This document shows, piece by piece, positions 8,656 through 53,697 of a stretch of DNA of 64,000 nt. The notes under the pieces were generated by a model. It did no database searches, was not told where the DNA came from, and saw nothing but the letters and a program-made list of their open reading frames with translations. Each line of letters opens with the position of its first letter. Positions within the stretch are counted from its first letter, which is position 1. The DNA is from an uncultured bacterium (GTDB lineage: Bacteria; Desulfobacterota; Binatia; UBA1149; CAITLU01): contig CAITLU010000013.1 of the NCBI GenBank assembly GCA_903893315.1, forward strand, positions 155,026 to 219,025, read 5' to 3'. A program made the position numbers and the translations under genes.

Positions 8656-8668
8656 GCGCGGCTCACGC

Positions 8669-23724: not shown

Positions 23725-23830
23725 CGGGTCCGCCCTTAAGCCGCGGGCCATCGGCCGCACCGCCAGATTCCGATGGATTCCCCGGCTTCTCCGGCCGTTT
23801 GCCTCACGAGTTTTCCAGGAACGCGAACCC

Positions 23831-24907
23831 ATGGACCCGGACATCCGGCCCATGGCACGCGATTTGCTTCTCACCACTGCCAATGGCGAAACGGAGTGCA
23901 GAATGAGGCGAGCAAGTCCCAAGGTAATCGACGCGGCGTCCGCCTCGCCGACGCGGTCGGTTGCAGCGGGCGACGCGGCTGATGGCGGCGCCGCGACCGA
24001 TTCGCCGCTACCCGACAAGATCCCGCGTTTCCTGAGAACCGAGAGGTTGCTGCACTGGGCACTCGCCTTGCCGTTCCTCGGCTGCCTCTTCAGCGCTGTC
24101 GCGCTGGTCGTCGTCTACAACCCGGATCCGACGCGACCTTACCGCTACGTCTTCGCCTGGGCTCACCGCGGCTGTGGTGCCGCACTGTTCATCCTGCCGA
24201 GCCTCGTCCTGCTCACCAGCGGACGCCACATGCGAGTGCTGCTCTACAACATCCGCCAGGCGTGGGGCTGGAGACTCGACGACATCAAGTGGCTGATGCT
24301 GATGGGCCCGGCCACCGTCTTCAAGCGGATCGTGCTGCCCGACCAGGGCAAGTTCAACGCTGCCGAAAAACTGAATTTCATGATGGTGATGGTCTTTACC
24401 CCGCTTTTCATAGCCAGCGGCATCGCGATCTGGCTGCCCGACTACACTTCGCTCGACCCGTTCGCACCGTGGATGTTTCACTGCGCCCTGGCCGCAACCG
24501 GACTGCCGCTGATTCTCGGCCACATGTTCATGGCCATGATCAACCCCGAAACTCGCGTCGGGCTGAGCGGCATGATCACCGGCTCGGTGAGCCGAACCTG
24601 GGCCCAGCATCACTACGCGCGCTGGTATCGCGAGCAGTTTCCCCACCTGGTCGCTGCCGGCGGCGACCACCACAAATCCGGCGCTGAACCGGCAACTGCG
24701 GCGGCCGTGGATGGGCAAACGTCGCCGGAGGTCACATCGAATGAATTGGAGCAACCGCGCGATGCGACAATGCGGGCCGCTGAGAGTAGGGTGGCGTGCG
24801 AAGACGAATATGAATCGAGCGATCCCGGGGGGGACGAGGCTGGATGTGTCCGCGAGGCGTATTTCGCCAGCGATGCAGGTGCTTCGAGAGACGTGATGGC
24901 GCCCTGA
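23831..24907 (+). CDS. Di-heme b-type cytochrome, membrane subunit (FdnI/HydC Ni/Fe-hydrogenase b-cytochrome family)
   Basis: Four predicted transmembrane helices carry His in TM1 (LHWALALPF), TM2 (AWAHRGCG) and twice on TM4 (FHCALAATGLPLILGH). The NAAEKLNF motif is present. The exact start is uncertain. The C-terminal tail is acidic. Confidence 0.7.
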   Translation: MDPDIRPMARDLLLTTANGETECRMRRASPKVIDAASASPTRSVAAGDAADGGAATDSPLPDKIPRFLRTERLLHWALALPFLGCLFSAVALVVVYNPDPTRPYRYVFAWAHRGCGAALFILPSLVLLTSGRHMRVLLYNIRQAWGWRLDDIKWLMLMGPATVFKRIVLPDQGKFNAAEKLNFMMVMVFTPLFIASGIAIWLPDYTSLDPFAPWMFHCALAATGLPLILGHMFMAMINPETRVGLSGMITGSVSRTWAQHHYARWYREQFPHLVAAGGDHHKSGAEPATAAAVDGQTSPEVTSNELEQPRDATMRAAESRVACEDEYESSDPGGDEAGCVREAYFASDAGASRDVMAP

Positions 24908-24996
24908 TTGCATCACTGCCGCTACCCGCAATTTATTGCGCGCATCCGCGATCCTTTGCGCGATTTTGTGCGCGGATATCGGCAGTGAAAGTTCGG

Positions 24997-26499
24997 ATGG
25001 CCACCCTCATGGCGTTCACGAGCGCGTTGTTGGCCGCGGTGCCTGGGATCGTGCGTAACAAATGGAAAGGCGCCCGTCGAAGCTCCGCACGTCGGTTTCA
25101 CACGAATCTAACGACGACGTGTGGACGATGGCATTCGCCATGTGTTCTGCTGTGCCTGATGCTGCTCACTAGCACACCGATGGTCTTCCGTTCCACACCG
25201 GCACGGGCCTCCTGGGTCGAGTCGCTGGTCATGCCGGGCGAAGTCGCGGCCAAGCACGCCAAGATCGAGCACGAATGCACCAAGTGTCACGCACCGCTCG
25301 ACAAGGTGGCGCAGGAAAAACTTTGCCTGGACTGCCACAAGGAGGTGGCCGCGGATCTGCTCGAAAAGCGCGGGTTCCACGGCCAGTCACCCGATGTCAG
25401 CGGACGGCCGTGCAAGACTTGCCACGCCGAGCACAAGGGACGCACCGCCGACCTGGTGCATCTCGACCGCGACAAGTTCGACCACCGGCTGACCGATCAC
25501 CCGCTGGTCGGCGCCCATCTGCTGGCGAAATGCGACGGCTGCCACAAATCCGACAAGCGCTTTCGCGAAGCGCCTCCGCACTGCAGCGACTGTCACACCG
25601 CCAAAGATCCGCACGAAGGTACCCTCGGGCTCACCTGCAACAACTGCCACGATGAGTCAGCCTGGAAATCAGTGCGCTTCAACCACGACACCGTTGCCTT
25701 TCACCTGGAGGGCCGCCACCGTGAAGCGCACTGCGATGACTGTCACAAGACTCGCCTTTTCAAGTCCACCGCGACGGACTGCTTCTCGTGCCACGAGCGC
25801 AAGGACGATCACCACGGCAGCTTCGGCCGCGACTGTCAGTCCTGTCACACGACGCGCGGGTTTGCCGGCACGACGTTCGACCACGCCCGCAAGACGAAGT
25901 TTCCCCTGGTCGGAAAGCACGCGCACGTCGCGTGCGGGAAATGCCACAAAAACGGGCTTGCCGCAGCACTCACGCCGACCAACTGCCACGACTGCCACGA
26001 GTACGACGCGAGCCGTCACGGACTGTTCGGGAGCAAGTGCGAGAGTTGCCACACGCCGGACGACTGGCGGCGCACGATCTTCGACCACGACCGGGACACT
26101 CACTTTCCGTTGCGCGGCCACCACGTCGGTCGCCGCTGCACCGACTGTCACCGCTCGGACCTGCGCGTGGAACGCCCCGACCAGAAGTGTGTCGGCTGCC
26201 ATCGCGACGACGACGTCCACCACGGTCGCCAGGGCACCGACTGCAAACACTGCCACGACGAACGCGGCTGGAGTCGCGACGTGCTGATCGACCACAACGC
26301 AACCCGCTTTGCGCTGACGGGCGCGCATGCGCGGACAGCCTGCCTGCGCTGCCACCAGTCACCGCAGTTCAAGGAAGTCGCGCTGGAGTGCGTCGGCTGT
26401 CACAAGGAAGACGCCTCCGCGCACCGCTGCGAACGCGGCAGCGATTGCGCTCGCTGTCACGACACCTCCAACTTCCACACGATCAAGGCGGCCCACTGA
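24997..26499 (+). CDS. 18-heme c-type cytochrome made of six tandem tri-heme cytochrome c7-type domains
   Basis: There are 18 CxxCH motifs in a periodic pattern of about 75 aa: F-x-H-x(2-3)-H ... CxxCH ... CxxCH ... CxxCH, repeated six times. The start and signal peptide position are uncertain. Confidence 0.85.
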   Translation: MATLMAFTSALLAAVPGIVRNKWKGARRSSARRFHTNLTTTCGRWHSPCVLLCLMLLTSTPMVFRSTPARASWVESLVMPGEVAAKHAKIEHECTKCHAPLDKVAQEKLCLDCHKEVAADLLEKRGFHGQSPDVSGRPCKTCHAEHKGRTADLVHLDRDKFDHRLTDHPLVGAHLLAKCDGCHKSDKRFREAPPHCSDCHTAKDPHEGTLGLTCNNCHDESAWKSVRFNHDTVAFHLEGRHREAHCDDCHKTRLFKSTATDCFSCHERKDDHHGSFGRDCQSCHTTRGFAGTTFDHARKTKFPLVGKHAHVACGKCHKNGLAAALTPTNCHDCHEYDASRHGLFGSKCESCHTPDDWRRTIFDHDRDTHFPLRGHHVGRRCTDCHRSDLRVERPDQKCVGCHRDDDVHHGRQGTDCKHCHDERGWSRDVLIDHNATRFALTGAHARTACLRCHQSPQFKEVALECVGCHKEDASAHRCERGSDCARCHDTSNFHTIKAAH

Positions 26500-29183
26500 T
26501 GGCAACGCCGAAGCACATCGCTCTGTGGATCAGTGTTCTGCTTGCCGCTTTGTCGGCGGCGCCGCTGCATGCCGCCTGCACGGGCGGAGGAACTTCGGGC
26601 CTGGCCCCGCCGGCAGTTTCTTTCCTGCGCAGTTACCGCGCCCCGTTCGGTGCGCCGACTCGCATGGCGGTCGATGCTTCCGGAAAGATCTATGTGACCG
26701 ATCCCTCGCAGGGACAGGTCGTCGTGCGCGAAGCGAGCGGGCGGATCATCTCGCGTGCGACCGTCGCAACGCGCCCGGTGAGCGTCGCGGTCAACGCTGC
26801 CGGCCGCGTCTATGTTGGCGATTCAACTTCGGGCAGCGTCACCGCCTACGACTCAGAGTGGAACGCGGTGCTGCGATTCGGCCGGGGCGACGGCGAATTC
26901 CAGCAACCGAGCGATCTGTCGTTGGAAGCCGCCACCGGCGACGTCTACGTCGCCGACAGCGCGGCCCAACTGGTGAAGGTCTACAGCGCCGACGGCATTT
27001 TCCTGCGTTCATTCGGCGGGCAGGGTAACGGCGACGGCGAATTCAACTACCCGGTAGGCGTATTCGTCGACGCGCCTGCGCGCCGTGTGCTGGTAGCCGA
27101 CCAGCTCAACTATCGAATCCAGGTCTTCGATCTGAGCGGCACTTTCGTCAGTTGCTTCGGCGGGCACGGCAGCGGCGCGGGGAATTTCAACATGCCGCAG
27201 GGCGTGACGGTCGACGGCCTGGGCCGCGTGTACGTCGCCGATGCCGTCGAAGGACGCGTCCAGGTGCTCGACCGCAGCGGCGACTTCGTCGGCTTCATCG
27301 GTGACTTCGGCGACGACGCCGCGCAACTGCGCATTCCCATCGGCATGGTCATCGATCCGTCCAACAGGTTGTTCGTCGCCGCTTCCAACAACGCGCGTCT
27401 CGAAGTGTTCGGGCTCGACACCTTCGCCGATCCGGAAACCATCCTGCCCGCCGTGGTTCGGGTGGAGCCGGAAATGATCGAGCGGGCCACGCCGGGAAAC
27501 TCGATCGGCGCGTACCTGGAAGTGCCGGGATACATGCTCGACCGCATCGACGCCGCCAGCATTGTCGCGAACGGCGTTCCCGCGCTGCCGGGTACGAACT
27601 CGATCGGCGATGGGAATGGTGACGGCGTTGCCGACCTGCGCGTCGAGTTCGCTCCCACGGCTTTGCTGGCCACTCTTCCCGCCGGCGGCATCGGCGGCAT
27701 CGCCATCTCCGGAACTTTGTCCGGCATTCGCTTCGAGGGATCGACGACGGTTCGTGTGAGCACCTGCGGGCCCACCACGGTGTGCCCGCTCGGTGCAGCC
27801 GACCCTCAGTGCAACGAAGCCGTGTGCGACGCGGCAACCGGTTGCACCGTGCGGCCGAAAAACGACGGCGCCGGTTGCGAAGACGGCAGTGCCTGCACGA
27901 TGGACGACGTCTGCGCCGCTGGCATATGCACCGGTGCGACGCTGGCCTGCAACGACGTCAACGTCTGCACCGACGACGGCTGCGACACCGCTGCCGGTTG
28001 CGTCTTCGCCGCCAATACCGCGCCGTGCGACGACGCGAACGCCTGCACCACCGACGACACCTGTGCAGCACAAACCTGTTCGGGCGCGGCGATAACGTGC
28101 AACGACGGCAATGCCTGCACCGACGACGGCTGCGACACCGTGACCGGCTGCGTATTCGCCGCCAATAACGCACCGTGTGACGACGCGAGCATCTGCACCA
28201 CGGACGACACATGCGTGGACGGCGTCTGCACGGGAACGCGGATTTCCTGCAATGACGGCAACCTATGCACCGACGATGTCTGTGATCCGCTGGCCGGCTG
28301 CACGCACGCCGATAATCGCGGACCTTGTGACGACGGCGATCCGGGAACGGTAGCCGACACCTGCGACGGCAACGGTCTGTGCCGTGGCCAGACCGCGACA
28401 GGCCAATACGCGATCCTGCAGTGGCCCCCGGAATCGTCCGGGCGCCGGACGGTGACGATTGCGGCTCGTGGCCTGGTCGGCGGCAACGTGTGCGCCGAAA
28501 ACATCAGCATCGGCCGATCGGTCGAGGTGAACGGCGACGTTCTGGCCTGGTCGCCCGTCGATCGCGCGCTCAGCTTGCGTTCCGGCGTCTGGATCGACGG
28601 CAACGTCGTGAGCGGCGGCGGAGCGATTACCGGCCTCGAATTCGCAACCATCGGCGGCCTGGTCGATTCGGCCGGCGGCACCGCCGAATTCGAAGACTGC
28701 TTCGCTGCACGCTACCAAGCCGCGCAGCGCCGCGCCGAGTTCGTGACGTTGCTCCCCACGCCCGGAATGACCACGGGATCGCTGCGGCTCGGCGTGTTGG
28801 AAGAACGGCGAATTCCCGAGACGGGAGACGTCGGCAGCGGCCTGATCGTGATCGACGCCGACAGCATCAACCTGGCGACCTCGAGTCGGCTGACGATCGT
28901 CGGCGACGCATCAACCGAACAGGTCGTGGTCCGCGTTCGCGGCCGGCTTATCCTGGAACGCGGCGCGAGCATCGTCGTCGAAGGATTTCCGGCAGAGCGA
29001 CTGATCTTCGTGGTGGACGGAACAATCAACCTGCGGTTGCAGACGCGCGTCGATGGTTCGCTGTTCGGAGCCGGGACGGTCCGGATCGGCAGCGGCGGCG
29101 CGGTCAGCGGCGCGGTCATCGGCCGCACCGTCGACCTGGCTCATTCGGCAAGTATCAATCTGCAACCGTTCGTGGGGTGGTGA
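26499..29183 (+). CDS. Secreted NHL-repeat beta-propeller protein with cysteine-rich tandem repeats and a C-terminal beta-helix-like region
   Basis: The ATG overlaps the upstream TGA (ATGA). The signal peptide is MATPKHIALWISVLLAALSAAPLHAAC. NHL blades are present (YVADsxnxRVqVfD-like, about 6). Four repeats of about 51 aa follow, of the form CNDGNxCTDDGCDtxxGCvfaaNxxPCDDxxxCTTDDTC. A G/V/I-rich repetitive tail ends the protein. Confidence 0.8.
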   Translation: MATPKHIALWISVLLAALSAAPLHAACTGGGTSGLAPPAVSFLRSYRAPFGAPTRMAVDASGKIYVTDPSQGQVVVREASGRIISRATVATRPVSVAVNAAGRVYVGDSTSGSVTAYDSEWNAVLRFGRGDGEFQQPSDLSLEAATGDVYVADSAAQLVKVYSADGIFLRSFGGQGNGDGEFNYPVGVFVDAPARRVLVADQLNYRIQVFDLSGTFVSCFGGHGSGAGNFNMPQGVTVDGLGRVYVADAVEGRVQVLDRSGDFVGFIGDFGDDAAQLRIPIGMVIDPSNRLFVAASNNARLEVFGLDTFADPETILPAVVRVEPEMIERATPGNSIGAYLEVPGYMLDRIDAASIVANGVPALPGTNSIGDGNGDGVADLRVEFAPTALLATLPAGGIGGIAISGTLSGIRFEGSTTVRVSTCGPTTVCPLGAADPQCNEAVCDAATGCTVRPKNDGAGCEDGSACTMDDVCAAGICTGATLACNDVNVCTDDGCDTAAGCVFAANTAPCDDANACTTDDTCAAQTCSGAAITCNDGNACTDDGCDTVTGCVFAANNAPCDDASICTTDDTCVDGVCTGTRISCNDGNLCTDDVCDPLAGCTHADNRGPCDDGDPGTVADTCDGNGLCRGQTATGQYAILQWPPESSGRRTVTIAARGLVGGNVCAENISIGRSVEVNGDVLAWSPVDRALSLRSGVWIDGNVVSGGGAITGLEFATIGGLVDSAGGTAEFEDCFAARYQAAQRRAEFVTLLPTPGMTTGSLRLGVLEERRIPETGDVGSGLIVIDADSINLATSSRLTIVGDASTEQVVVRVRGRLILERGASIVVEGFPAERLIFVVDGTINLRLQTRVDGSLFGAGTVRIGSGGAVSGAVIGRTVDLAHSASINLQPFVGW
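27948..28390 (+). repeat. Intragenic tandem DNA repeat (about 150 bp unit, about 3 copies) encoding the cysteine-rich modules
   Basis: Units beginning tgcaacgacg...ctgcaccgacgacggctgcgacacc recur at 27948, 28098 and 28248, with decreasing identity. Confidence 0.6.
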
Positions 29184-29191
29184 AGACGTCG

Positions 29192-30580
29192 ATGGCATCG
29201 AAGCTGACAGCGTTCTCGTGGCTGCTCCTGACGTGGGCGGCGTACGCGTCGGGGCCGGCATACGCGCTCGACCCGCCGCACGACGTCAGTCGGTCGATCG
29301 ACTGCGCCAGTTGCCACATCTCGCACCATGCGGCGGGCGGCTCGATCACCCGGATCAGCGGTAACTCCAACCTGTGCGCGAGTTGCCACTCGGCCGGCGG
29401 CGTTGCGGCCACAAGCGCGCTCGCCAACAGCGACCAGGCGATCCCCGGCGTGAGCGGCACTTCACACCGCTGGGATTCCGGCGCGTCCGGCTGGGTGAAG
29501 AAGAATCCCGCCAACACCTCGACCGGAACGGTGCGCTCCACCGGCGTCTTCACCGGGCGCTATCGCAAGACCTACACGATCACCATCACCGCCGACGGTG
29601 TCGGCAACGCCGGTGGTGCCCAGTTCGCGTGGACCACGTCCACGCCGCAGCGCAATACGTACCTCGATGCGTTCCCAGCGCTGGCATACAACGGCAGCAG
29701 CGGCACGCAGGATTGGAGCGCAACCGCATGGCAGGAGAGCGGCGAGGCCGACGGCGTTGCCGCCGGCGTCGTGCGCGTCGTGACCAACGCCGCGTGCGCC
29801 GCCGGCAACTGCCTTCGCGTGGGCGGCGTAATCATCAACGGCATCAGCGTGGCGCGTGCGGCCGATCTTCACGCGGGCACGGCCGCCATGCTGACGTTCA
29901 GCTACCGCCGCCAGCTTGCTGCCTGTCCAAATACGAACACCGACGGGGTGGCGCTTCAGGTAAGCGCGGACGCTGTTTCGTGGACGACGCTGGCTACTTA
30001 CGTGCTGAACGCGTGCGATGCAGCGCAGGTGGAACAGGCCTTCGACGTCACGGCCTACATCGCGGCGACAACCGCGATTCGCTTCCTCGGTACCGGAACC
30101 AGCGCAGCCACCGACTTCATCTACGTCGACGACGTGCAGATTGAGAACCTCGTTGCCGGCGGCGGCGCCGCCGGCGTTTCGGCTGCCGGCACCGTAGCCC
30201 TCGACGAGGGCATCAGCGTGACGTTCGGCAACGGGACATCATCGCCCTACTTCAAGCTCGGCAGCCAGTGGACCGTCTACGCCAACCCGGACATCAACCA
30301 GCCGACGTCCTTCGCTCTTGCCGCGCGCCTGGCTAATGAAAAGGTCACCTGCTCCACCTGCCACAACGAGCACAGCCAGTTGGCTGAGCCGTTCGATCTG
30401 GCGGCGCCGGCCTACCCGTTGACGGGGAACGGCGGGGAGGGACGACACAACCAGCGTCTCGACAACGACATCAACCAGATATGCGTCGACTGCCACAGTG
30501 CGCGCAACGTCACCGCGGCGCAGAGTTCACATCCGGTGGGAATCGTCATCCCCGCCACCGGCTCGTACAAGAACCCATAG
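29192..30580 (+). CDS. Tetra-heme c-type cytochrome with a large non-heme central domain, secreted
   Basis: The signal peptide is MASKLTAFSWLLLTWAAYASGPAYA. Two CASCH motifs lie near the N-terminus, and CSTCH and CVDCH lie near the C-terminus. They flank about 300 aa of beta-rich sequence with no heme motif. Confidence 0.8.
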   Translation: MASKLTAFSWLLLTWAAYASGPAYALDPPHDVSRSIDCASCHISHHAAGGSITRISGNSNLCASCHSAGGVAATSALANSDQAIPGVSGTSHRWDSGASGWVKKNPANTSTGTVRSTGVFTGRYRKTYTITITADGVGNAGGAQFAWTTSTPQRNTYLDAFPALAYNGSSGTQDWSATAWQESGEADGVAAGVVRVVTNAACAAGNCLRVGGVIINGISVARAADLHAGTAAMLTFSYRRQLAACPNTNTDGVALQVSADAVSWTTLATYVLNACDAAQVEQAFDVTAYIAATTAIRFLGTGTSAATDFIYVDDVQIENLVAGGGAAGVSAAGTVALDEGISVTFGNGTSSPYFKLGSQWTVYANPDINQPTSFALAARLANEKVTCSTCHNEHSQLAEPFDLAAPAYPLTGNGGEGRHNQRLDNDINQICVDCHSARNVTAAQSSHPVGIVIPATGSYKNP

Positions 30581-30588
30581 GATCCACC

Positions 30589-31971: not shown

Positions 31972-32394
31972 TCCACGCACCGCGGTCTCACTCGCCACGT
32001 CGAATACGTGCGCCGCGCGTTTACGCGCTCCGTGCGCCGCCGGCCCTGAGCACCTTTTGGCGAATCGTCGAGCATCCGAAGACTACCGTGCGATCCTGCA
32101 AGTACGGCGCGTTAGCGCGCAAACAATTGCTCGGTTCGGGGCTCGCGCATCAGGACGGTTCGTTGACTTCGCGTCGGCTGCGGCCGGATTGGGTTGGCCC
32201 GCGATACCTGAAATCACCAGGGCACCGGAAATGCGCGCCGACGATGCTGCGTCCTGGAACAGGCAGAATGCGGCGAAAAACAACGCGAAGACTCCATGAA
32301 CGCTTCGGACAGGCTCTCGTCCGCCATCGTCTCGATTTTGCCGAAAGCATCCGGCAGCGGGTTGGCTCGCGTGTTGCTTATCAAACGACCTCTC

Positions 32395-33486
32395 ATGAAT
32401 GTGGCGTTTCGCACAAGGTGGACGAGGGACGCACGTTTTGCGGTGAACACTGCGGCGCTCGCGTGGTGCATGGGCATGGTCGCGGGCTGCGCGGCACAGC
32501 AAAAGCCGCAGGACATGTTCTGGCCCGACCCTCCGGACAAGCCGCGCATCAGGTTCGTGCGCAACCTCCAATCCAAGAGCGATCTCGGCGCCCCGGCCTT
32601 GCTCGAAACGCTGGTCGGACGCGACAAGGAGCAGGCCCTTTACCAGCCGATGGGCCTTGCGCTTTCCGATGACTGCCAGCGCCTCTACGTAGCCGATCGG
32701 GTCTGGAACTCCGTTTTCGTTTTCGATTTCCAATCCAAGGCCGTGCGCACCATCGGAGGCGACGAGCGTTATCCGCTGACAATGCCGGTCGGCGTAGCCC
32801 TGGACGGGGACGAGAACGTCTACGTCGCCGATACCGGCACACGCACGGTCCGCGTCTACGACAAGACCGGAAAGTTTCTGCGCGGCATCGGCAAGGACCA
32901 GCTCGTGCGGCCGACGGGAATCACCATCGACGCAACGCGCGGGCGGCTCTACGTCGTCGACACCGGACAGAACGACACTCCCGAAGCGCACCGGGTGAAA
33001 GTATTCGACCTCGCGGGCGGCCTGATACGAGAGATCGGACGGCGCGGCGAAAGCGACGGCGAATTCAATTTCCCGACCTTCGCCAACCTCGACGCGCAAG
33101 GCCGGCTCTACGTCGTCGACTCCGTGAACAGCCGTATCCAGGTCTTCGATCCGGATGGGAAGTTCTTGTGGAAGTTCGGCAGTTCCGGCGACCACATCGG
33201 GAATTTCGCGCGCCCCAAGGGCGTGGCGGTCGACAGCTTCGGCAACATCTACGTGGTCGATTCGCGCTGGGGCAACGTGCAGATCTTCAACCAGCAGGGG
33301 CAGCTGCTGATGCTTTTCGCCGGAGTCGGAGAGTACCCCGGACTGATGATCAACCCCGGCGCCATCGTCATCGACCGCCACAATCGAATCTACGTCTCCG
33401 ACACGCTGGGGAGACGCGTGAGCATCTACGAACTCATCGGCACATCTGCCGAAGACAGCCTCGAGTCACGGGGCACAGCGCCATAA
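32395..33486 (+). CDS. NHL-repeat beta-propeller lipoprotein
   Basis: The lipobox is MVAGC. Six NHL-like blades are present (LYVADrvwNsVfVFD, VYVADTGTRTVRVYD, LYVVDTGQ..., LYVVDSVNSRIQVFD, IYVVDSRWGNVQIF, IYVSDTLGRRVSIYE). Confidence 0.8.
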   Translation: MNVAFRTRWTRDARFAVNTAALAWCMGMVAGCAAQQKPQDMFWPDPPDKPRIRFVRNLQSKSDLGAPALLETLVGRDKEQALYQPMGLALSDDCQRLYVADRVWNSVFVFDFQSKAVRTIGGDERYPLTMPVGVALDGDENVYVADTGTRTVRVYDKTGKFLRGIGKDQLVRPTGITIDATRGRLYVVDTGQNDTPEAHRVKVFDLAGGLIREIGRRGESDGEFNFPTFANLDAQGRLYVVDSVNSRIQVFDPDGKFLWKFGSSGDHIGNFARPKGVAVDSFGNIYVVDSRWGNVQIFNQQGQLLMLFAGVGEYPGLMINPGAIVIDRHNRIYVSDTLGRRVSIYELIGTSAEDSLESRGTAP

Positions 33487-33604
33487 GCCGCTGGGGGAGG
33501 GGCGTATTCCGGCGAATGATGCGCGAAGTCGGACATCGAGAAATACAAACGAAGCTAGAGAGCGTGAAACGAACAGACGGAAAGGAACGATAGGAGGTTC
33601 CATC

Positions 33605-34255
33605 ATGAAAAGAGGAAGATCATTATTAATCGCCGCATCCTTGCTGGTGCCAACCATGGCGTCGGCGGGGACCATCGCCAACACGAAGCACGACTTGAGC
33701 GCGACCTCGACCGCGGTGATCAAGTCGGGGACTCAAACCGACACCTGCGTGTTCTGCCACGTATCGCACAGCAGCGCTCCGGGCGTGGCGCGGCCGTTGT
33801 GGAGCCACACGATGACCACCCAGAACCTGACCTGGGCGCCGACCACGACGGTGCGCGGGACGGTACTGCCGACCGCGATCACCAGCGCAGCGCTGACCGG
33901 CTCACGTTCATGCATGAGTTGTCACGACGGGACAGTCGCGCTCGGCGATCTGCTCAACGGAACCGGCGGCACCGTCAGCGGAACCAACGTCACGGCCGGC
34001 AAGCTGACCGGTGGCATCAACCTGCTCAACCCGGCATCGATGCAGAGCAACCATCCGATCGGTGTTGCCAAGCCGGCGGCGGCCACCGGCTTCACGGCCT
34101 TCAAGACCGTCGCGGCCAGCAGCCCCGTCAACTACGATTCGTCCGGTTTCGTACAGTGCGACTCGTGCCACAACCCGCATGACAACACCTTCGTGCCGTT
34201 CCTGAGGATCAGTCCGGCGGGCGGTGCGATCTGCACCTCCTGCCACGACATCTGA
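33605..34255 (+). CDS. Tetra-heme c-type cytochrome, small secreted (216 aa)
   Basis: A strong RBS (taggagg) sits 8 nt upstream of ATG 33605. The signal peptide is MKRGRSLLIAASLLVPTMASA. CVFCH, CMSCH, CDSCH and CTSCH are present. The N-terminal motif TKHDLS...CxxCHxSH...PLW is shared with the 39045 cytochrome. Confidence 0.85.
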   Translation: MKRGRSLLIAASLLVPTMASAGTIANTKHDLSATSTAVIKSGTQTDTCVFCHVSHSSAPGVARPLWSHTMTTQNLTWAPTTTVRGTVLPTAITSAALTGSRSCMSCHDGTVALGDLLNGTGGTVSGTNVTAGKLTGGINLLNPASMQSNHPIGVAKPAAATGFTAFKTVAASSPVNYDSSGFVQCDSCHNPHDNTFVPFLRISPAGGAICTSCHDI

Positions 34256-34352
34256 CCACGGTGCCAATGCGGCGGAGAATGCCCTCTAGTGATTGGGATT
34301 CCCCGCCGCAACGGTCTAGTAGTTGACCCCTGGAGTTCGGACCCGGGGGGGC

Positions 34353-34682
34353 ATGGTGACGAGTAGAAACTTCTGCGGAATCCTTTCGCTCGTCGTTCTG
34401 TGCGTGTCGCTCGTTGCAGCGCCGGGATCGGCAACCACGCTCGGCGACATCATCTACTCGCGCAAAGCCGGCCCGGGAGATTGGGCCCCGGCCTACTTCC
34501 CGCACTGGGTCCATCGCATCAAGTACAAGTGCTACGCGTGCCACGACACGCTGTTCCCCATGCGGCGCGGCGGTAATCCGACAATGGCGGGGATGTCGAC
34601 CGGCGCTTCGTGCGGCGCGTGTCACAACGGCAAGACTGCCTTCGGGCTGGACACCTGCCAGCGATGCCACGTTTCGCAATGA
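34353..34682 (+). CDS. Tri-heme cytochrome c7 (PpcA-like periplasmic carrier)
   Basis: A signal peptide is followed by FPHWVHRIKYKCYACH...CGACHNGKTAFGLDTCQRCH. The three CxxCH motifs have c7 spacing. The mature protein is about 80 aa. Confidence 0.85.
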   Translation: MVTSRNFCGILSLVVLCVSLVAAPGSATTLGDIIYSRKAGPGDWAPAYFPHWVHRIKYKCYACHDTLFPMRRGGNPTMAGMSTGASCGACHNGKTAFGLDTCQRCHVSQ

Positions 34683-35938
34683 GGCACCGCGCGACGATCT
34701 GCATGATCGTCGCGCTCGTCGCGGCTGCCGGAGGCTGCAGCCGCGAAACGCGCTACCGCGCGCTCGACGTTTTGTTCGAGGGCGTCCCGCCACCCGGCCA
34801 GGTCGTCAGCAACGAACCGGTCACGCATCGTCCTCGTCGTTCGCCTCCACCTCCTCCGATTCCGCCTCCCGTCGCGTTCACGCCGCTGCCGCCCAACGCA
34901 GGCCTCGCGTCGCTGCAAACCTGGGACGACGTCGTGCGACTGCTGCCCAAAGACCAGGCCGGCAATCCGGACTGGACTGCGGCGGTCGACGAAAAAATGA
35001 TCGCCCCGCGTTCCGTACTGGACCCCGACTCCGCGGAGTCGGAAGCGATCACTCTTGACGCCCTCGATGCTTCGTCGGTCGCTCCGGATGTCGAACTCGC
35101 CGCCAAGTCGGATCCGGCTTTCGATGTCTCCTTCTCACACCGGAAGCACGGGACCTGGCTGAGCTGCGGGAACTGCCACCCTGCCCCCTTCGAGAAGAAA
35201 GCCGGGCAGACGCCGATGACCCCGGCCAGCGTGCACGCACAAGAGTACTGCGCTGCCTGTCACGGCAAGGTCGCGTTCGACATCGGACCCAATTGCCTGT
35301 CGTGCCACCTTCGCACCATGCCGCGCGACGCGGCCGGACAGGTAGATTGGAATCGCGCACTGGATGAGCAGCGCATCGCGCCGCGCCCTGGACCGGGATC
35401 TAAAACCGTCGATCAGGAGGTTCTCAAACTCGATATAGAAATGACGCCGCCGGCCCAGCCCGCGTTTGCGTCGGTATTTTCACACGGCACACACACGCGG
35501 TTGATAGCTTGCGCCAGTTGCCATCCGAGTCCCTACTCGGCCAAGGTTCGCACGGCGATGACCGACACCGCCGAACTGCATTCGTCCCGCTATTGCGGTT
35601 CCTGCCACGGCACGGTGTCGTTTGGAATCACCGGATTCTGTCAGCGCTGCCACCCGGCTCTCGAAAAAGCGCGTCAGCACCAGGAAACTCTGGACCTCGA
35701 TGTGGCGGTGACGCCCAAGGCGCAGACCGGCGGCGCCACGACGTTCTCGCACAAGCAGCACCGCTGGGTGGAGTGTGCCACCTGTCACAGCAACCTCTTC
35801 ACCAACACGCCGGGGGCAACCACCATGCCGAAGGCCGATATCTACGGCGGCAAGTACTGCGCCCCCTGCCACGGCAAGGTGACCGACGATCTCACCGTCA
35901 GTTGCCGGCGCTGTCATTCGGGCGGTGACGCCCGATGA
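34679..35938 (+). CDS. Nona-heme lipoprotein cytochrome (three tandem c7-type domains behind a Pro-rich linker)
   Basis: The ATGA overlap is with the c7 gene. The lipobox-like sequence is VALVAAAGGCS, followed by a PPPPPIPPP linker. The module FSH(x)xH...CxxCH...YCxxCHG...CxxCH is repeated three times. Confidence 0.85.
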   Translation: MRHRATICMIVALVAAAGGCSRETRYRALDVLFEGVPPPGQVVSNEPVTHRPRRSPPPPPIPPPVAFTPLPPNAGLASLQTWDDVVRLLPKDQAGNPDWTAAVDEKMIAPRSVLDPDSAESEAITLDALDASSVAPDVELAAKSDPAFDVSFSHRKHGTWLSCGNCHPAPFEKKAGQTPMTPASVHAQEYCAACHGKVAFDIGPNCLSCHLRTMPRDAAGQVDWNRALDEQRIAPRPGPGSKTVDQEVLKLDIEMTPPAQPAFASVFSHGTHTRLIACASCHPSPYSAKVRTAMTDTAELHSSRYCGSCHGTVSFGITGFCQRCHPALEKARQHQETLDLDVAVTPKAQTGGATTFSHKQHRWVECATCHSNLFTNTPGATTMPKADIYGGKYCAPCHGKVTDDLTVSCRRCHSGGDAR

Positions 35939-35963
35939 CCGGCAGCACACTTGCGGCATCGTG

Positions 35964-37979
35964 ATGAAGCGCGCCGCACGGCCAGCGATCGCGTGCGGCG
36001 TTCTCGCGTGCATGGTGCTCACCATCACGCCTGCGGCCGAGGCCGGACTGAACTGGGGGCTGGGTCGCTGGGAAGGCGACACCACGCTTCTCGTGAACTG
36101 GGAAACCCAGCACGACAAACGGACTCAGGACCGTTACGACACGCTTCTCTTCGAAGAGCGCCTGCGTCTGCGCAACACCGGCGCCTTCATCTTCGATCCG
36201 CGCTTGCTGACGCTCAATCTCAGCGGATCGTTCGGAGCGCCTCAGGAAATGGCGCTGGGGCACACCGACACGTCGCTGCGGGTGGGCAACGGAACTCTGT
36301 TCGACTATGCCTTCGAGGGCCTGGTCCTGGCGGATACGGCTTACCCGACCACTCTGTTCGCCACCCGCAGCCAGACCATGCTTACGCAGGGCTTCGGCGG
36401 TCGCTCTGATCTGACCTTCCAGAGCTTCGGCGGCACCTTCGATCTGCACGAAAACAATTTCCTCGAGGCCCGCGGGTGGCGCGGATTGACCGCGACGCTG
36501 GACGCCCGCGAGGAGTCGCTCCTCGAAAATTCGTCGTATTTCGGCAGTCCGTTCAAACGCGACGAGACCCGACAGATAGTCAACGCGCAGGCGCACCGCT
36601 CCGGCGAGAACTCGGACCTCGATCTGCACTACGAACTCAACTCCGTAAGCGACCCGCTCAACCCGTCGAACGTATTCGACAGCCACACATTTCGTGCGAC
36701 TCACAGTCTCGACTTCGGTCCCACGCTCAACCGGCGCCTCGACTCGGGACTCTATTCCTTCATCCGCAGCGGCGCATCGAACGGCAGTTACGTGTCGGCG
36801 AGCGAGGCTCTGCACGTCGACCACCATCGCGACTTCTCGACCAACTATCGCTACGACTTTTCCCAGAGCGATTCGGAATCCGGCACCACCACTACCAATA
36901 CCGCCAACGCCACGCTGCTGAGGCGGTTCTATCGCAACCTCTCGACCACGCTCGGCGCGCGCGGATCACTGCAGAATTTCCCGAACGGCGACAAGTACCT
37001 TTACGGAGGCGAGGCCGGCGCCGACTACCGGCGCGCGATTCCCGGCCAGGGGCAACTGTTCGCGGACACCCACCTCGGTTACGAGGTTGACAACAACAAC
37101 TTCACCTCGTCGTTCGTCGATGAACCCGACGAAAGGCAGACGGTTCCAATCGATGTCGGCACCGGCGCCGGGTTCACCCTGACTCATCCATTCGTGGTCA
37201 TCGGATCGATCGTGGTGGTCGACCTCGGTCCCGACGGCAACTCGCGCTTCGACACCATCGTCAACCGGGACTACCTCGTCGTCGCGGAAGGCAGCCGCAC
37301 CCGGATCGTGCCGTTGCCCGACAGCCCCGTGCTTCGCGCCGGCGATCAGTTGTCGGTGAGCTACACCTACACCATCGCGCCCAGTCTCGAGTATTCAACC
37401 TTCGACACGAGCATACGCACCGGTCTGGAATTCCCGTGGCTTTCGCTATCCTACGAACACATGATGAGCGATCAGACGCGTCTGTCCGGGACTTCCGCCC
37501 CGCAATTCCTGATCGATCAGAACGCGGACCGGTTTCAACTCGAGCTGAGGAGCCGGTGGAAACGCCTGCTCGCGCAATCGGCGGTCGATTACGAAATTCT
37601 CAAATCGTCGATCGTCGACTCCAACGGATTGCGCTTCGGCCAACTTCTCGTCTACCAAATCAACGCCGGCCTGGTCGCGGAGTTGACCGCTGACGAGAAC
37701 TTCGTCGACTACCCGAAAGAAAATCGCAGTTCCGAGTCCTACCTGGCGCGGGCTTCGATCGACTGGACGGCCTTCGAAGGGCTTTCCGCTTCGCCTTTCA
37801 TCGACTACCGTAGTTTTCACGACTCGACCGTCATGAGCGACGTTGTCGTCGAGGCCGGAATGCGCCTGCACTGGACCTATCGAAGCGTGGACATCTTCCC
37901 AACTGTCACCTGGACCGACTATCGCAACAGGATGGATGGCGTTCATGCCGAACTGCGCATCACCCGACGTTTCTTCTGA
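35964..37979 (+). CDS. Outer-membrane beta-barrel protein (putative porin of a porin-cytochrome conduit)
   Basis: The signal peptide is MKRAARPAIACGVLACMVLTITPAAEA. The protein is about 670 aa with Y/T/S/G/N-rich alternating beta-strand texture. The C-terminal ...ELRITRRFF ends in an aromatic Phe, the OMP sorting signature. Confidence 0.7.
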   Translation: MKRAARPAIACGVLACMVLTITPAAEAGLNWGLGRWEGDTTLLVNWETQHDKRTQDRYDTLLFEERLRLRNTGAFIFDPRLLTLNLSGSFGAPQEMALGHTDTSLRVGNGTLFDYAFEGLVLADTAYPTTLFATRSQTMLTQGFGGRSDLTFQSFGGTFDLHENNFLEARGWRGLTATLDAREESLLENSSYFGSPFKRDETRQIVNAQAHRSGENSDLDLHYELNSVSDPLNPSNVFDSHTFRATHSLDFGPTLNRRLDSGLYSFIRSGASNGSYVSASEALHVDHHRDFSTNYRYDFSQSDSESGTTTTNTANATLLRRFYRNLSTTLGARGSLQNFPNGDKYLYGGEAGADYRRAIPGQGQLFADTHLGYEVDNNNFTSSFVDEPDERQTVPIDVGTGAGFTLTHPFVVIGSIVVVDLGPDGNSRFDTIVNRDYLVVAEGSRTRIVPLPDSPVLRAGDQLSVSYTYTIAPSLEYSTFDTSIRTGLEFPWLSLSYEHMMSDQTRLSGTSAPQFLIDQNADRFQLELRSRWKRLLAQSAVDYEILKSSIVDSNGLRFGQLLVYQINAGLVAELTADENFVDYPKENRSSESYLARASIDWTAFEGLSASPFIDYRSFHDSTVMSDVVVEAGMRLHWTYRSVDIFPTVTWTDYRNRMDGVHAELRITRRFF

Positions 37980-38001
37980 TCCGCCTTGCGGCACCCGGCC
38001 G

Positions 38002-39048
38002 GTGGCTGCGGCCGGCCGGCGCTGGGCGCGCGGACTGGCGTTGGCGGCGCCGGCCCTGCTCGCTGCGGCCGCGGCTGCCTGCTCGTCGGGTTGGCCGACC
38101 CACGGCCAGCCCGCGGAGCCCGCGCGGATGGTGTGGCCCGAAGCGCCGGACGCGCCTCGCATAGAACTGGTTTCCACGTTCAGCGCCGGCTCCGATCTCG
38201 GCATCGAACTCTCCATATGGTCGCGTATTGCCAACGTCATTTCAGGCGGCGGCGAAACGCGGATGGTACGCCCCAGCGGCGTGAGTGCCGCCGGCGGACG
38301 CATCGCGGTGGCCGATCCGGGAGCCGGACTCGTTCACCTCTACGATCCGGCCCGCCGCCGCGCTCTGGCGCTGCGCGAGTGTGGTGACACGGCGCTCGCA
38401 GAGCCGGTCAGCGCAATTCTGCTCGGCGAGCGCCTGTACGTGGCCGACGCGAGCGCGGCGCGCATTTTCGTATTCGATCTCGACGGCGCCTGCATAGCCG
38501 GCTGGCCGCTTGAAGAGGGATCGCGTCCGGCCGGGTTGGCGGCCGACCCCGCGCGGTCGAGAATCTACGTGGCGGAAGCCGCATTACATCGCGTCGTCGT
38601 CTACGATCCACAGGGCAACAGAGTTCTGGAAATCGGCCGCCGCGGCGCCGCGCCCGGCCAGTTCAATTATCCAACTTGGCTGGCAGTAGACGACGCCGGT
38701 AACATATACGTAACGGACGCGCTCAACTTCCGGGTGCAGATCTTCGATCCGGAGGGCCGGCCGACCGGCGTCTTCGGTGAGCAAGGCGACGCCTCCGGAG
38801 CGCTGTCGCGACCAAAGGGCATAGGTATCGATCGTCATGGGCACATCTATCTGGTCGATGCTCTTTTCGACGCCGTGCAGATGTTCGATCGCGAGGGCCA
38901 CTACCTGATGGTCTTCGGCGGCAGCGGCCGCGAGCCGGGGCTTTTCTGGCTTCCTTCCGGCCTCGCCGTCGATGGCGACCGCATCTACGTTTCGGACTCG
39001 TACAATCAGCGGGTGCAGGTGTTCCGCTTCCTGGCAGACGAGTCATGA
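38002..39048 (+). CDS. NHL-repeat beta-propeller protein (probable lipoprotein)
   Basis: The GTG start gives MAAAGRRWARGLALAAPALLAAAAAAC-SSG. The NHL blades are LYVADASAARIFVFD, IYVAEAALHRVVVYD, IYVTDALNFRVQIFD, IYLVDALFDAVQMFD and IYVSDSYNQRVQVF. Confidence 0.75.
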   Translation: MAAAGRRWARGLALAAPALLAAAAAACSSGWPTHGQPAEPARMVWPEAPDAPRIELVSTFSAGSDLGIELSIWSRIANVISGGGETRMVRPSGVSAAGGRIAVADPGAGLVHLYDPARRRALALRECGDTALAEPVSAILLGERLYVADASAARIFVFDLDGACIAGWPLEEGSRPAGLAADPARSRIYVAEAALHRVVVYDPQGNRVLEIGRRGAAPGQFNYPTWLAVDDAGNIYVTDALNFRVQIFDPEGRPTGVFGEQGDASGALSRPKGIGIDRHGHIYLVDALFDAVQMFDREGHYLMVFGGSGREPGLFWLPSGLAVDGDRIYVSDSYNQRVQVFRFLADES

Positions 39049-40754
39049 CGCTGCGCCTGTTCGCCTGTCTCGCCGTTCTCTTGATGCTGGCCGCGGCCGG
39101 CGCGGCCCAAGCCGGCCTGCGTGAGACCGCGCACAACCTGAGCCCGAGTGCAGTCGGAGGCCGCTCCTCAGCTTCCGCAGCCGTGGCTCCATCTATCGAC
39201 GGTACCGACAGCGACCTCTGCGCGTATTGCCACACGCCACACTCGGCAAAGACCCAGCGCGGTCTGTGGAGCCGCGCTCTGGCGCCCGCGCGCTACAAGC
39301 TCTACGAGAGCAGCACCACCGAAGCGAAACTGCAGCAACCGAACGGAAGCTCGCGTCTGTGTCTGTCCTGCCACGACGGCACCATGGCCGCCGGATCGAC
39401 GTCGCGTCAGGGTGGAGCGGCGGTCAGCAAGTTGACCGGTCGCAGCGTGCTCGGCACCGATCTTTCCGACGACCACCCCATCTCGTTCGTCTACGATCAA
39501 TCACTGGTCACCCGGCGACGGGATCTCGCCAACCCGGCGTCCCTGATCGGCGGTGTCCGCCTCGACTCGAGCGCGCAGGTCCAGTGCACCTCGTGTCACG
39601 ACGCGCACGCAGACCGTCATCCGCAATTCCTCGTCGCCGATCCCGCGTTTTCGCGACTGTGCCTGACCTGCCACCGGCCGCAGCACTGGCAGGAATCGGC
39701 ACACGCGACTTCACCGACCAGTGCTCTCGGCGCCGGATCGTTGCCCGGGCTGGGCTACGCGACCGTCGGCGAAAATGGCTGCTCGAGCTGCCATCGCTCC
39801 CACGGCGCCGAGCACCCTCAGCGCCTGCTCACATCAGCAACGGAAGAAGGGGTCTGCTTCAATTGTCACGACGGCCGCATCGCCGAGAAGGATATGCGGC
39901 GCGAATCGCGCAAGTTCAGCGCGCATCGAGTCGACGTGTACACCGATGTCCACGACCCGACCGAAAACCCCAACCACATGCCGATGCACGTCGAGTGCAT
40001 CGACTGCCACAACGCTCACGCAGCGCGCGCCGACTCCGGCGGCGGACCGATGCCCGGCCCTCTCACCGGTGTATCGGGCGTGACCGTCTCCGGCGGTTTC
40101 GTGCGCGAGGCGACTTTCGAGTACGAAGTCTGTCTGAAGTGCCACGGAATAAGCGAAGCGCGCGACCCAGTGGTGTTCCGCAACGACAGCCCGAGCAATC
40201 TGCGGATGAAGATCAACCCGCAGAACGTCTCGTTTCACCCCATCGCCGACGTCGGCCGCAACCCCACCATCGCGGGCCTGGTCTCGCCGTGGACTCCGGC
40301 CAGCCGTACGTCGTGCACCGCGTGTCACGACAACAACTCCGCCGACCGCAGCGCACCGCGCGGACCGCATGGTTCCAATTACCGACCTATCCTCGCTGCC
40401 GAGTATCACCTCGACGCGACGCCGGGCAGGGAGTCATATCAACTCTATGCCCTGTGTTATCGCTGCCATGACCGCAATACGCTGCTCGACCGCCACGAAG
40501 GCTTCCCGCACCGGTCGCACGTCGTCGACGACGGCGCGAGCTGCGCCGTCTGTCACGACGCTCACGGTTCGCCCCACAACGCGCACCTGATCAATTTCAT
40601 GCGCCGCGACCTTACCGGCAAGGAGGTCGTGCTGCCGTCCGTCAAGACCGGCCGCCTCGAATACATATCGAATGCGCCGGGGTCAGGTCAGTGCTCGCTC
40701 AGTTGCCACGGATACGATCACAACGACGCGAAGTATCCTTCACAAGGCAGGTAG
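39045..40754 (+). CDS. Dodeca-heme c-type cytochrome, secreted
   Basis: The ATGA overlap is with the upstream NHL gene. The signal peptide is MTLRLFACLAVLLMLAAAGAAQA. There are eleven CxxCH motifs plus CSLSCH. The N-terminal TAHNLS...CAYCHTPH...LW motif is present. Confidence 0.85.
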   Translation: MTLRLFACLAVLLMLAAAGAAQAGLRETAHNLSPSAVGGRSSASAAVAPSIDGTDSDLCAYCHTPHSAKTQRGLWSRALAPARYKLYESSTTEAKLQQPNGSSRLCLSCHDGTMAAGSTSRQGGAAVSKLTGRSVLGTDLSDDHPISFVYDQSLVTRRRDLANPASLIGGVRLDSSAQVQCTSCHDAHADRHPQFLVADPAFSRLCLTCHRPQHWQESAHATSPTSALGAGSLPGLGYATVGENGCSSCHRSHGAEHPQRLLTSATEEGVCFNCHDGRIAEKDMRRESRKFSAHRVDVYTDVHDPTENPNHMPMHVECIDCHNAHAARADSGGGPMPGPLTGVSGVTVSGGFVREATFEYEVCLKCHGISEARDPVVFRNDSPSNLRMKINPQNVSFHPIADVGRNPTIAGLVSPWTPASRTSCTACHDNNSADRSAPRGPHGSNYRPILAAEYHLDATPGRESYQLYALCYRCHDRNTLLDRHEGFPHRSHVVDDGASCAVCHDAHGSPHNAHLINFMRRDLTGKEVVLPSVKTGRLEYISNAPGSGQCSLSCHGYDHNDAKYPSQGR

Positions 40755-40847
40755 TCACCGCGGACATGGCCGCAGCGCGGGCGTGATCGGCGCGGTTGCG
40801 GACACAGGGACGGTTGCCCGCCTGCCGCCCGGTCCGTATAAGACGCC

Positions 40848-50997: not shown

Positions 50998-51186
50998 TCA
51001 GATGCGTTCGCCGTCGCCTTCGACCTTGCGGACCGAGGTGTCGAGTACGCGCATCTCCAGTCCGCCCTTGGAGCGGATCGTCAGGATGTTGCTGTAGACG
51101 TTCATGCTCGGAGGCGGCTCGACCTTGGTGACGGTAAAACGGCCTGGGTTGCTCTGGTGTACGACCTGGTCACCGACTTTCATCAT
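50998..51186 (-). CDS. Hypothetical small protein (62 aa), DUF3553-like N-terminus
   Basis: The MMKVGDQVVHQSNPGRFTV pattern resembles the 50299 ORF. It is tightly packed between plsC-like and grx-like genes. Confidence 0.35.
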   Translation of the reverse strand: MMKVGDQVVHQSNPGRFTVTKVEPPPSMNVYSNILTIRSKGGLEMRVLDTSVRKVEGDGERI

Positions 51187-51220
51187 CGTCTCTCCCGTCC
51201 GCGCCGCCCGTCGCCGCGAA

Positions 51221-52075: not shown

Positions 52076-52126
52076 AAATCGCAGACGGACGTCTGCGACC
52101 TAGACGAAAAGCGCTGCCTCGCGCGT

Positions 52127-53683: not shown

Positions 53684-53697
53684 ATGAGACCGTCCGG

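Follow-up and report, generated by a model that had tools for sequence, protein, structure and literature searches.

The 894-amino-acid (aa) protein encoded at positions 26499-29183 of the DNA analysed here combines an NHL beta-propeller, an IPT-type domain, a disulfide-rich stalk and a tip with the fold of ice-binding proteins (IBPs), and its gene lies within a cluster of multiheme cytochrome genes. The DNA is a 64,000-nucleotide (nt) stretch from an uncultured bacterium of the class Binatia (GenBank assembly GCA_903893315.1, contig CAITLU010000013.1, positions 155,026 to 219,025 of the forward strand; hereafter the window). We tentatively propose, with a little less than even confidence, that the protein is a non-catalytic accessory subunit with a stalk, serving a multiheme-cytochrome electron conduit as its scaffold or adhesin arm in a diderm bacterium of the Binatia type. 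An initial annotation of the window had already described a secreted mosaic protein and suggested an extracellular structural or adhesive partner for the cytochromes. Its description is confirmed with some corrections and turned out to be essentially right, and its interpretation is partly supported. The gene and its parts are as follows.

26499..29183, + strand: whole gene, exported NHL / IPT / Cys-rich stalk / IBP-fold protein of 894 aa (open reading frame and translation, ~25 full-length homologs; stop codon 29181-29183)
26499..26573, + strand: signal peptide, residues 1-25, with predicted signal-peptidase-I cleavage between LHA and AC (n, h and c regions in the sequence, ortholog pattern)
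26604..27431, + strand: six-blade NHL beta-propeller, residues ~36-311, with putative Cys27-Cys219 closure (Pfam, PDB sequence matches, covariation, conservation)
27432..27761, + strand: IPT/TIG-type Ig-like beta-sandwich, residues 312-421, with a DGNGDGVADL loop (AlphaFold2 (AF2) model)
27762..28391, + strand: Cys-rich stalk, residues 422-631, eight Dicty_CTDC hairpin modules forming four units of 50 aa, 32 Cys (Pfam PF00526, module alignment, AF2)
27948..28247, + strand: two DNA-similar tandem units, U2 (27948-28097) and U3 (28098-28247), within the stalk (Tandem Repeats Finder, unit alignment)
28392..29180, + strand: tip, residues 632-894 (263 aa), beta-solenoid with one long alpha-helix (DUF3494/IBP-1 fold), putative Cys665-Cys734 disulfide, C-terminus HPFVGW (AF2, Foldseek, weak sequence matches)

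The propeller is the best-conserved part of the protein. Pfam NHL (PF01436) matches it in six stretches (E 6e-27, 92.7 bits against a cutoff of 20), which places it in the NHL family, and the NHL domains of Thin, TRIM71, Brat and PknD in the PDB match it with E-values from 5e-50 to 5e-10. Thus, the six-blade NHL region of the initial annotation is confirmed. The invariant propeller residues form the structural NHL motif (VxD...N.R.qVF), which recurs blade by blade, and the SGL family (SMP-30/gluconolactonase) of Pfam is slightly over its threshold on the same protein (29.5 versus 26.3 bits). In the Binatia family, the mean pairwise identity is 65% for the propeller, ~60% for the stalk, 51% for the IPT domain and 46% for the tip, which is the least conserved part. 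The IPT/Ig-like domain at residues 312-421 had been overlooked in the initial list of domains, which was otherwise correct in naming the NHL region, the repeats and the tail. Together, the propeller and the IPT domain form a base. Shorter homologs, which hold the corresponding place in comparable clusters of other lineages, have this base too. An AF2 model of residues 312-633 (31 sequences) shows a beta-sandwich followed by eight beta-hairpins, with a predicted local distance difference test score (pLDDT) of 92.3 and a predicted template modelling score (pTM) of 0.51; a low pTM is expected for an elongated, rod-like object.

The protein carries a signal peptide, and its cysteines suggest that it is oxidised after export. 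The orthologs share a cleavage-site pattern of the signal-peptidase-I type, with [A/V/L]-x-[A/G/S] before the cut and x-Cys after it. All 36 cysteines can be assigned to 18 putative disulfides, with 16 in the stalk, one between Cys27 and Cys219 and one between Cys665 and Cys734 in the tip, and the protein would therefore require an oxidising compartment. The pairing of Cys27 with Cys219 is indicated by covariation: among the 25 full-length family members, both residues are present in 21, neither is present in 4, and no member has only one of them. The members lacking the pair are polyphyletic, since P0020 and P0022 group with each other, and the nearest relatives of P0007 and of P0017 are Cys-containing sequences. 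Paired loss has thus occurred in at least three independent events, and the shorter NHL homologs retain the pair. Joint loss is also seen in the tip, where P0026 lacks both Cys665 and Cys734. The disulfide between Cys27 and Cys219 would tie the mature N-terminus to the propeller. Lipidation of Cys27 was considered as well and ruled out, because this residue covaries with Cys219 and because the residue preceding it across the orthologs (A, T, V, L, M or D) does not fit a lipobox, whose consensus [LVI][ASTVI][GAS]C requires an unpaired Cys at +1.

The stalk is built from small cysteine-rich modules. Pfam Dicty_CTDC (PF00526) scores 35.9 bits against a gathering score of 27, which together with the signal peptide assigns the repeats to a family of secreted proteins that includes EcmA and EcmB, in agreement with the earlier view of the repeats as disulfide-rich extracellular modules. 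Each unit consists of two four-Cys modules of 24-26 aa, one of type A (C-x5-C-x4-C-x5-C) followed by one of type B (C-x5-C-x5-C-x4-C), and thus contains eight cysteines rather than the approximately ten that had been counted. Four units had been recognised correctly, although each is 50 aa long and not 51. The 32 stalk cysteines lie within residues 423 to 628, and in the AF2 model each Cys module forms one of eight successive beta-hairpins with a pLDDT of ~90-97. No solved structure was found to resemble this Cys-rich rod.

At the DNA level, Tandem Repeats Finder reports a period of 150 with 2.4 copies and 77% matches (score 416) at 27946..28301. The tandem array and the Pfam matches therefore place the repeat feature where the initial annotation had located it, far beyond chance. 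The period of 150 bp stands, but the DNA similarity is limited to U2 and U3. The outer units are degenerate relative to these two, with nucleotide identities of 45% for unit 1 and 57% for unit 4. The units had been taken as near-identical; U2 and U3, the only two that are alike, share 77% of nucleotides and 70% of amino acids, their longest exact run is 26 nt, and their identity by codon position is 0.84, 0.78 and 0.68 for the first, second and third positions, respectively. Since the nucleotide identity is only 77%, the third codon position is the least conserved and no exact run exceeds 26 nt, U2 and U3 are the products of an old duplication maintained under purifying selection and not near-identical repeats.

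To place the protein in a family, we used a search of 5.8 billion proteins, which returned ~25 full-length homologs of 802-1004 aa with 42-77% identity. The few that are named carry the labels Candidatus Binatia or 'Deltaproteobacteria bacterium' and come from metagenome-assembled genomes (MAGs). Among 185,579 species-representative genomes, a full-length ortholog was found in 4, all of them Binatia-type MAGs from soil and groundwater. The remaining 76 loci of this genome-collection scan encode Cys-rich repeat proteins, mostly of Myxococcota MAGs, and are uninformative on function; loci encoding such repeats number in the hundreds, again mostly in Myxococcota MAGs. Apart from differences in the called start, two parts are stable in length across the family: ~420 residues at the N-terminus and 253-270 (mostly 266) at the C-terminus. 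The Cys cluster between them contains 16, 24, 32, 40, 44 or 48 cysteines, corresponding to 2 to 6 units, and is composed of degenerate first and last units around 0 to 4 canonical 50-aa units, so that the lengths differ by exact steps of 50 aa.

On a neighbour-joining tree built on the non-stalk columns, the number of units changes at least eight times, including within the close pair P0020 and P0022 (4 versus 3 units). The repeat number is therefore variable across orthologs, as the initial annotation had expected, but the variation between strains that it also expected is not seen: no difference in stalk length occurs inside 7 clusters of at least 90% identity (17 sequences), and the identical 894-aa protein is present on at least 10 contigs from several samples. 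In the closest relatives, unit 2 matches its counterpart unit 2 (0.76) better than unit 3 (0.66), which argues against recent homogenisation. Stalk length is therefore labile among species; with positional orthology of the units kept, the 7 clusters invariant and the identical protein recurring, there is no sign of strain-level switching.

The tip adopts a predicted ice-binding-protein fold. An AF2 model of residues 629-894 (30 sequences; pLDDT 93.8, pTM 0.92) shows a beta-solenoid with a 21-residue alpha-helix at model residues 101-121, which is the combination of solenoid and single long alpha-helix that characterises the DUF3494 fold (Ice_binding, PF11999). In a Foldseek search against the PDB, all 29 matches at E<1e-3 are DUF3494/IBP-1 ice-binding proteins, with template modelling (TM) scores of 0.45-0.71 and 11-17% identity. 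At the sequence level, phmmer weakly matches the tip to the snow-mould antifreeze proteins 3vn3 and 5b5h (E ~1.5e-3). In Pfam, the last 110 residues give sub-threshold matches only, to the beta-solenoid families DUF7305, Ice_binding and Bactofilin. DUF7305 (PF23981) is a near miss over residues 782-887 (25.1 bits against a gathering score of 27), no literature on DUF7305 was found, and NCBIfam holds no model for the tip. The tail had been suggested to be either a beta-helix or a polymer. The former is borne out by the solenoid, and the latter, as a polymer-forming or bactofilin-like tail, was rejected: Bactofilin (PF04519) stays below its cutoff (13.4 versus 27.9 bits, E 0.093), and in the model the helix packs against a compact solenoid.

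When 1.84 billion representatives at 50% identity were searched exhaustively with phmmer, 122 relatives of the tip were identified, and 32 of the 50 that were scanned match Pfam Ice_binding at E<1e-3 (best 2.8e-14). Nearly all 122 carry the domain as the extreme C-terminus, ending in HPFVGW, APWVLW or PWIGWCD, and the domain is often preceded by Cys-rich repeats. The heads joined to it include FG-GAP, RCC1, DUF5122, PD40, VWA, TSP3, disintegrin, Laminin_G_3 and PKD-type domains, while some members consist of a signal peptide and the domain alone. Since the tip family often follows Cys-rich repeats behind many unlike heads, the Cys-rich stalk and the IBP-fold C-terminal domain form a reusable, extracellular-type cassette, and the Binatia protein is this cassette joined to a cytochrome-associated NHL/IPT base. 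The exchange also runs in the other direction, as P0032 keeps the NHL propeller and the stalk but has two Laminin_G_3 domains in place of the IBP-fold tip. In nearly all of the relatives (P0121-P0239), nothing follows the terminal aromatic motif, which may cap the structure or act as a recognition signal.

The link between the protein and the cytochromes comes from conserved gene order. The ATG of the 894-aa gene (26499) shares one nucleotide with the TGA of the upstream 18-heme cytochrome gene (TGATG), and the downstream cytochrome gene starts 8 nt past its stop codon, so that cytochrome genes stand on both sides, as the initial annotation had noted. Five species-level genomes (L003/L007, L004, L005, L006 and L008) keep the same gene order, which bears out the proposed link and indicates that it is not coincidental, and the second half of the cluster is syntenic in L003-L008. 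In 9 of 9 loci examined (L003-L008, L085-L087), the gene immediately downstream encodes a cytochrome whose mature N-terminus is LDPPH. Directly after signal-peptide cleavage, the mature protein starts with (A)LDPPH(D/N)xSxSIxCxxCHIxHHAxGGAIT. Loci with this neighbour include those of P0032, with its two-Laminin_G_3 tip, of P0035, which has another tip and adjacent ResB and CcsA maturation genes, and of P0039, a stalk-less protein of 606 aa in a similar cluster. In some genomes, the LDPPH cytochrome is fused to the following 9-10-heme cytochrome to give a protein of 884-886 aa. A PDB sequence search with the LDPPH cytochrome returned no usable match. The conserved His at position 5 of its mature form could be a heme ligand. 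In P0040 (836 aa, partial), a CcsA domain, an NHL propeller and a paired-CXXCH motif occur in one open reading frame; whether the fusion is real or comes from gene calling that merged neighbours, an NHL gene stands here too between cytochrome-maturation and cytochrome genes.

The cluster comprises 12 plus-strand genes at 23831-40754, between rsmB and rpe. Besides the 894-aa gene, which is the third, its members are the following.

23831..24907, + strand: gene 1, FdnI-like diheme cytochrome b, a membrane quinone-interacting subunit (Pfam Ni_hydr_CYTB, E 4e-13)
25159..26499, + strand: gene 2, 18-CxxCH multiheme cytochrome, start uncertain (CxxCH count)
29192-30580, + strand: gene 4, 'LDPPH' cytochrome, 462 aa, 4 CxxCH (motif count, synteny)
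30589-31971, + strand: gene 5, 460-aa cytochrome with 9-10 hemes (MtrC/MtrF domain II/IV match)
32296-33486, + strand: gene 6, plain NHL protein (NHL396), after a 324-nt gap (NHL match)
within 32296..40754, + strand: genes 7-9, a 4-heme cytochrome, a c7 triheme cytochrome, and a 9-heme cytochrome with three c7-type domains and a lipobox
35964-37979, + strand: gene 10, 671-aa putative outer-membrane barrel (signal peptide, C-terminus RRFF)
37936-39048, + strand: gene 11, NHL protein with a lipobox
second half of the cluster, ending by 40754, + strand: gene 12, 11-12-heme MtrC-like cytochrome

Seven of these genes encode cytochromes, with 3 to 18 CxxCH motifs each, and two of them score above the gathering score of the MtrC/MtrF domain II/IV family, which gives the cluster the multiheme content of a conduit. 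The cytochrome b also matches an NCBIfam formate-dehydrogenase gamma-like model (E 2e-22), under that model's cutoff. For the 18-CxxCH cytochrome, a signal peptide is absent at the annotated ATG (25159), and a hydrophobic segment lies upstream in frame (CVLLCLMLLTSTPMVF...ARA|S, 24844-26499); translation thus probably begins at an alternative codon, farther upstream than 25159. The 671-aa protein has a signal peptide, a mature part free of cysteine, no transmembrane helix and the C-terminus RRFF, and its homolog in L087 ends in VRRFF; it is a probable outer-membrane barrel. It is also a candidate for an undescribed barrel family of porin-cytochrome conduits, with a possible inserted beta-rich domain at about residues 395-470.

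We propose a mechanistic model for the 894-aa protein. After export through the Sec pathway, the 36 cysteines would be oxidised into 18 disulfides. The conserved propeller/IPT base would then dock on the co-encoded LDPPH or MtrC-like cytochrome, and the disulfide stalk would serve as a rigid spacer, longer or shorter according to how many 50-aa units it contains (2 to 6, depending on the species). The solenoid tip evolves fast and is exchangeable for lectin-like domains; outside the cell, it may bind to a solid or a polymer, for example a mineral surface, a matrix polysaccharide or an envelope layer. In this way, the protein would hold the cytochrome complex and the substrate at a fixed distance. 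In favour of a location beyond the outer membrane are the kinds of domain that accompany these modules elsewhere, the matches of the partner cytochromes to the MtrC family and a stalk length that varies three-fold.

Several results weigh against this proposal. Synteny is the sole link of the 894-aa protein to the cytochromes, and the data do not separate the periplasm from the cell surface as its location. The protein has no recognisable anchor or sorting signal and no C-terminal secretion signal, and it misses the Pfam threshold for Ice_binding (PF11999) with 10.9 versus 28.7 bits. The putative porin of 671 aa has no sequence match in Pfam, NCBIfam or the PDB, and a hydrophobic-moment heuristic for beta-barrel strands gives no clear signal either way. 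In the literature, we found no paper linking Binatia with multiheme cytochromes, and extracellular electron transfer by these clusters in Binatia is putative.

Whether the protein works inside or outside the outer membrane bears most directly on this model. As a periplasmic scaffold or strut, it would be oxidised by a DsbA-type system and organise the 18-heme and c7-type cytochromes between the inner-membrane cytochrome b and the porin, with its tip bound to peptidoglycan or to the inner face of the outer membrane. The presence of a Sec signal only, with no C-terminal secretion or sorting signal, is consistent with this arrangement, as are the position of the gene in the first half of the cluster near the cytochrome b and the 18-heme cytochrome and the prediction of NHL proteins of other cytochrome clusters as non-cytoplasmic or periplasmic. 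However, a three-fold variation of the stalk (2 to 6 units) poorly suits the bridging of a compartment of fixed width. Moreover, the Dicty_CTDC/DUF4215 repeats and the tip family keep company with cell-surface or extracellular modules and MYXO-CTERM proteins, and the adjacent partner cytochromes match the MtrC/MtrF domain II/IV family. We therefore regard the periplasmic arrangement as doubtful, while giving it serious weight. A catalytic role is a less probable reading. The propeller could be the functional core, as a lactonase-like, lyase-like or cofactor-bearing redox site fed or drained by the cytochromes, with the stalk and the tip as targeting modules. Beta-propellers do occur in cytochrome-linked enzymes, such as cd1 nitrite reductase, quinohaemoprotein dehydrogenases and hydrazine synthase; here the propeller is the domain with the highest conservation and its SGL match is barely above threshold. 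Yet its invariant residues are those of the per-blade structural motif and form no single-site constellation, the domains that it matches best, the NHL domains of TRIM71, Brat, Thin and PknD, are not enzymes, and no cofactor motif was found in the 894-aa protein, which makes an enzyme quite unlikely.

The tip and the repeats invite two further explanations. The DUF3494 fold of the tip, together with the precedent of adhesins that combine a stalk with an ice-binding domain, such as that of Marinomonas, could mean that the protein is an adhesin, for ice or more general, which has nothing to do with the cytochromes and lies among their genes by chance. This seems very unlikely, as the LDPPH neighbour is retained in 9 of 9 loci despite protein identities of 42-77% and differing tips, the MAGs come from soil and groundwater, and the identity of the tip to ice-binding proteins is 11-17%. 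The in-frame 150-bp tandem repeat and the unequal unit numbers of the orthologs are, in turn, what a contingency locus would show, in which recombination of the 150-bp units switches stalk length between strains and thereby varies a surface antigen. We give this explanation almost no credence, since the units are 77% identical, diverge most at the third codon position and share no exact run longer than 26 nt, positional orthology of the units is retained in close relatives, and length variants occur neither within the 7 clusters of at least 90% identity nor among the at least 10 contigs with the exact protein.

Comparison with known systems places the accessory-subunit proposal in context. NHL propeller genes in multiheme-cytochrome clusters have been described as UetH and UetI in Tenderiales and Gallionella, where they accompany the barrel UetC and c7 cytochromes, as DFE_0451 and DFE_0463 in Desulfovibrio ferrophilus, and as Gmet_0556 in Geobacter metallireducens. 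More generally, such genes recur in the cytochrome clusters of iron oxidisers, iron reducers, corroding sulfate reducers and electrode-grown autotrophs. The roles suggested for these proteins, which are proposals only, are protein-protein contacts, complex stabilisation or adhesion. The 894-aa protein resembles them as an exported NHL propeller amid multiheme cytochromes, c7-type triheme cytochromes and a beta-barrel, the last being putative here, and the window also contains two plain NHL genes of the UetH/DFE_0451 kind (32296-33486 and 37936-39048). Compared by description with these proteins, which are described as propellers only, the 894-aa protein has three parts besides its propeller: an IPT domain, a disulfide stalk of variable length and an IBP-fold tip. 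Thus, by context and propeller it belongs with the NHL partners of cytochrome clusters, and the IPT domain, stalk and tip are what is new.

The individual modules also have known counterparts. Like the DUF3494/IBP-1 proteins TisAFP (3vn3, 5b5h), FfIBP (4nu2), ColAFP (3wp9) and SfIBP_1 (6bg8), which are secreted, the tip has a beta-solenoid with one packed long alpha-helix. It differs from them in its length (263 versus ~220 aa), in ~90 residues of strands before the helix, in its conserved disulfide and in the terminal HPFVGW, and it ends a cytochrome-linked multidomain protein of temperate soil and groundwater bacteria; ice binding by the tip seems unlikely. The stalk shares four-Cys modules of 24-26 aa and the presence of signal peptides with EcmA/EcmB, secreted Dictyostelium proteins of which Dicty_CTDC is a 24-aa repeat, and with the Cys-rich proteins of Myxococcota (DUF4215, MYXO-CTERM). 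In contrast to these, it has just eight modules, which alternate between types A and B in an exact 50-aa super-repeat and link two globular ends. The 1.5-MDa ice-binding adhesin of Marinomonas primoryensis may be considered an analogue in the way it works but is not a relative, as it has an unrelated sequence, type I secretion, calcium-stiffened Ig repeats, another solenoid fold and no cytochrome link. The combination of propeller and IPT domain resembles galactose oxidase domain 3 and the Sema-PSI-IPT ectodomains of plexin and Met in fold only (7-12% identity), and the propellers of those proteins are of other types, kelch and Sema, with seven blades.

The rest of the window is an ordinary diderm chromosome with uvrA, pgm, pdxA, surA, mfd, aroK-aroB, a secretin gene, priA, def, fmt, rsmB, the cytochrome cluster, rpe, glnA, ileS and glmS. 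The presence of the secretin and of surA (7570-8817, minus strand) identifies the organism as a diderm. The secretin gene (Secretin and Secretin_N; 14825-16351, minus strand) adjoins the fused aroK-aroB (12927-14639, minus strand), which we take to be the typical neighbourhood of the type IV pilus secretin gene pilQ. The genes rsmB and rpe, often close together, here flank the 17-kb cytochrome cluster (23725-40847). In L003/L007, another Binatia-type genome, the orthologous genes are partly rearranged and sit in a different neighbourhood, which suggests that the cytochrome cluster moves as a block. A promoter and terminator scan of 23500-41200 found sites no more numerous than in shuffled sequence. 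An 865-aa open reading frame at 51104-53701 (plus strand) has no Pfam match at E<1e-5.

It is tempting to speculate further on the tip. The flat faces of its IBP-type solenoid may have been re-used by Binatia as a binder of mineral lattices or solid surfaces, so that a cytochrome complex on the outer surface would be clamped to iron oxides, manganese oxides or some other solid, with the number of stalk units giving the distance. We consider this more specific idea unlikely at present. In the literature, we found no paper linking ice-binding-fold domains with multiheme cytochromes or conduits; the only related idea likens the Thr-Pro repeats in PgcA of Geobacter to motifs that bind oxides and to antifreeze motifs. 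If true, a mineral-binding tip would be the first DUF3494 fold serving extracellular electron transfer, and the NHL propellers found alongside multiheme cytochromes in many phyla would for the first time have a concrete function.

For the wider family, the stalk/IBP-fold cassette is rare, with 122 representatives at 50% identity, and Myxococcota and related bacteria use it behind many extracellular head domains. Binatia have been known mainly through MAG-based predictions of methylotrophy and alkane use, and they carry a conserved 12-gene conduit-like cluster with a cytochrome b, multiheme cytochromes and a putative porin. Within this cluster, a rigid spacer and an exchangeable tip mounted on a propeller point to a role in scaffolding or adhesion, a hypothesis that can be tested domain by domain.

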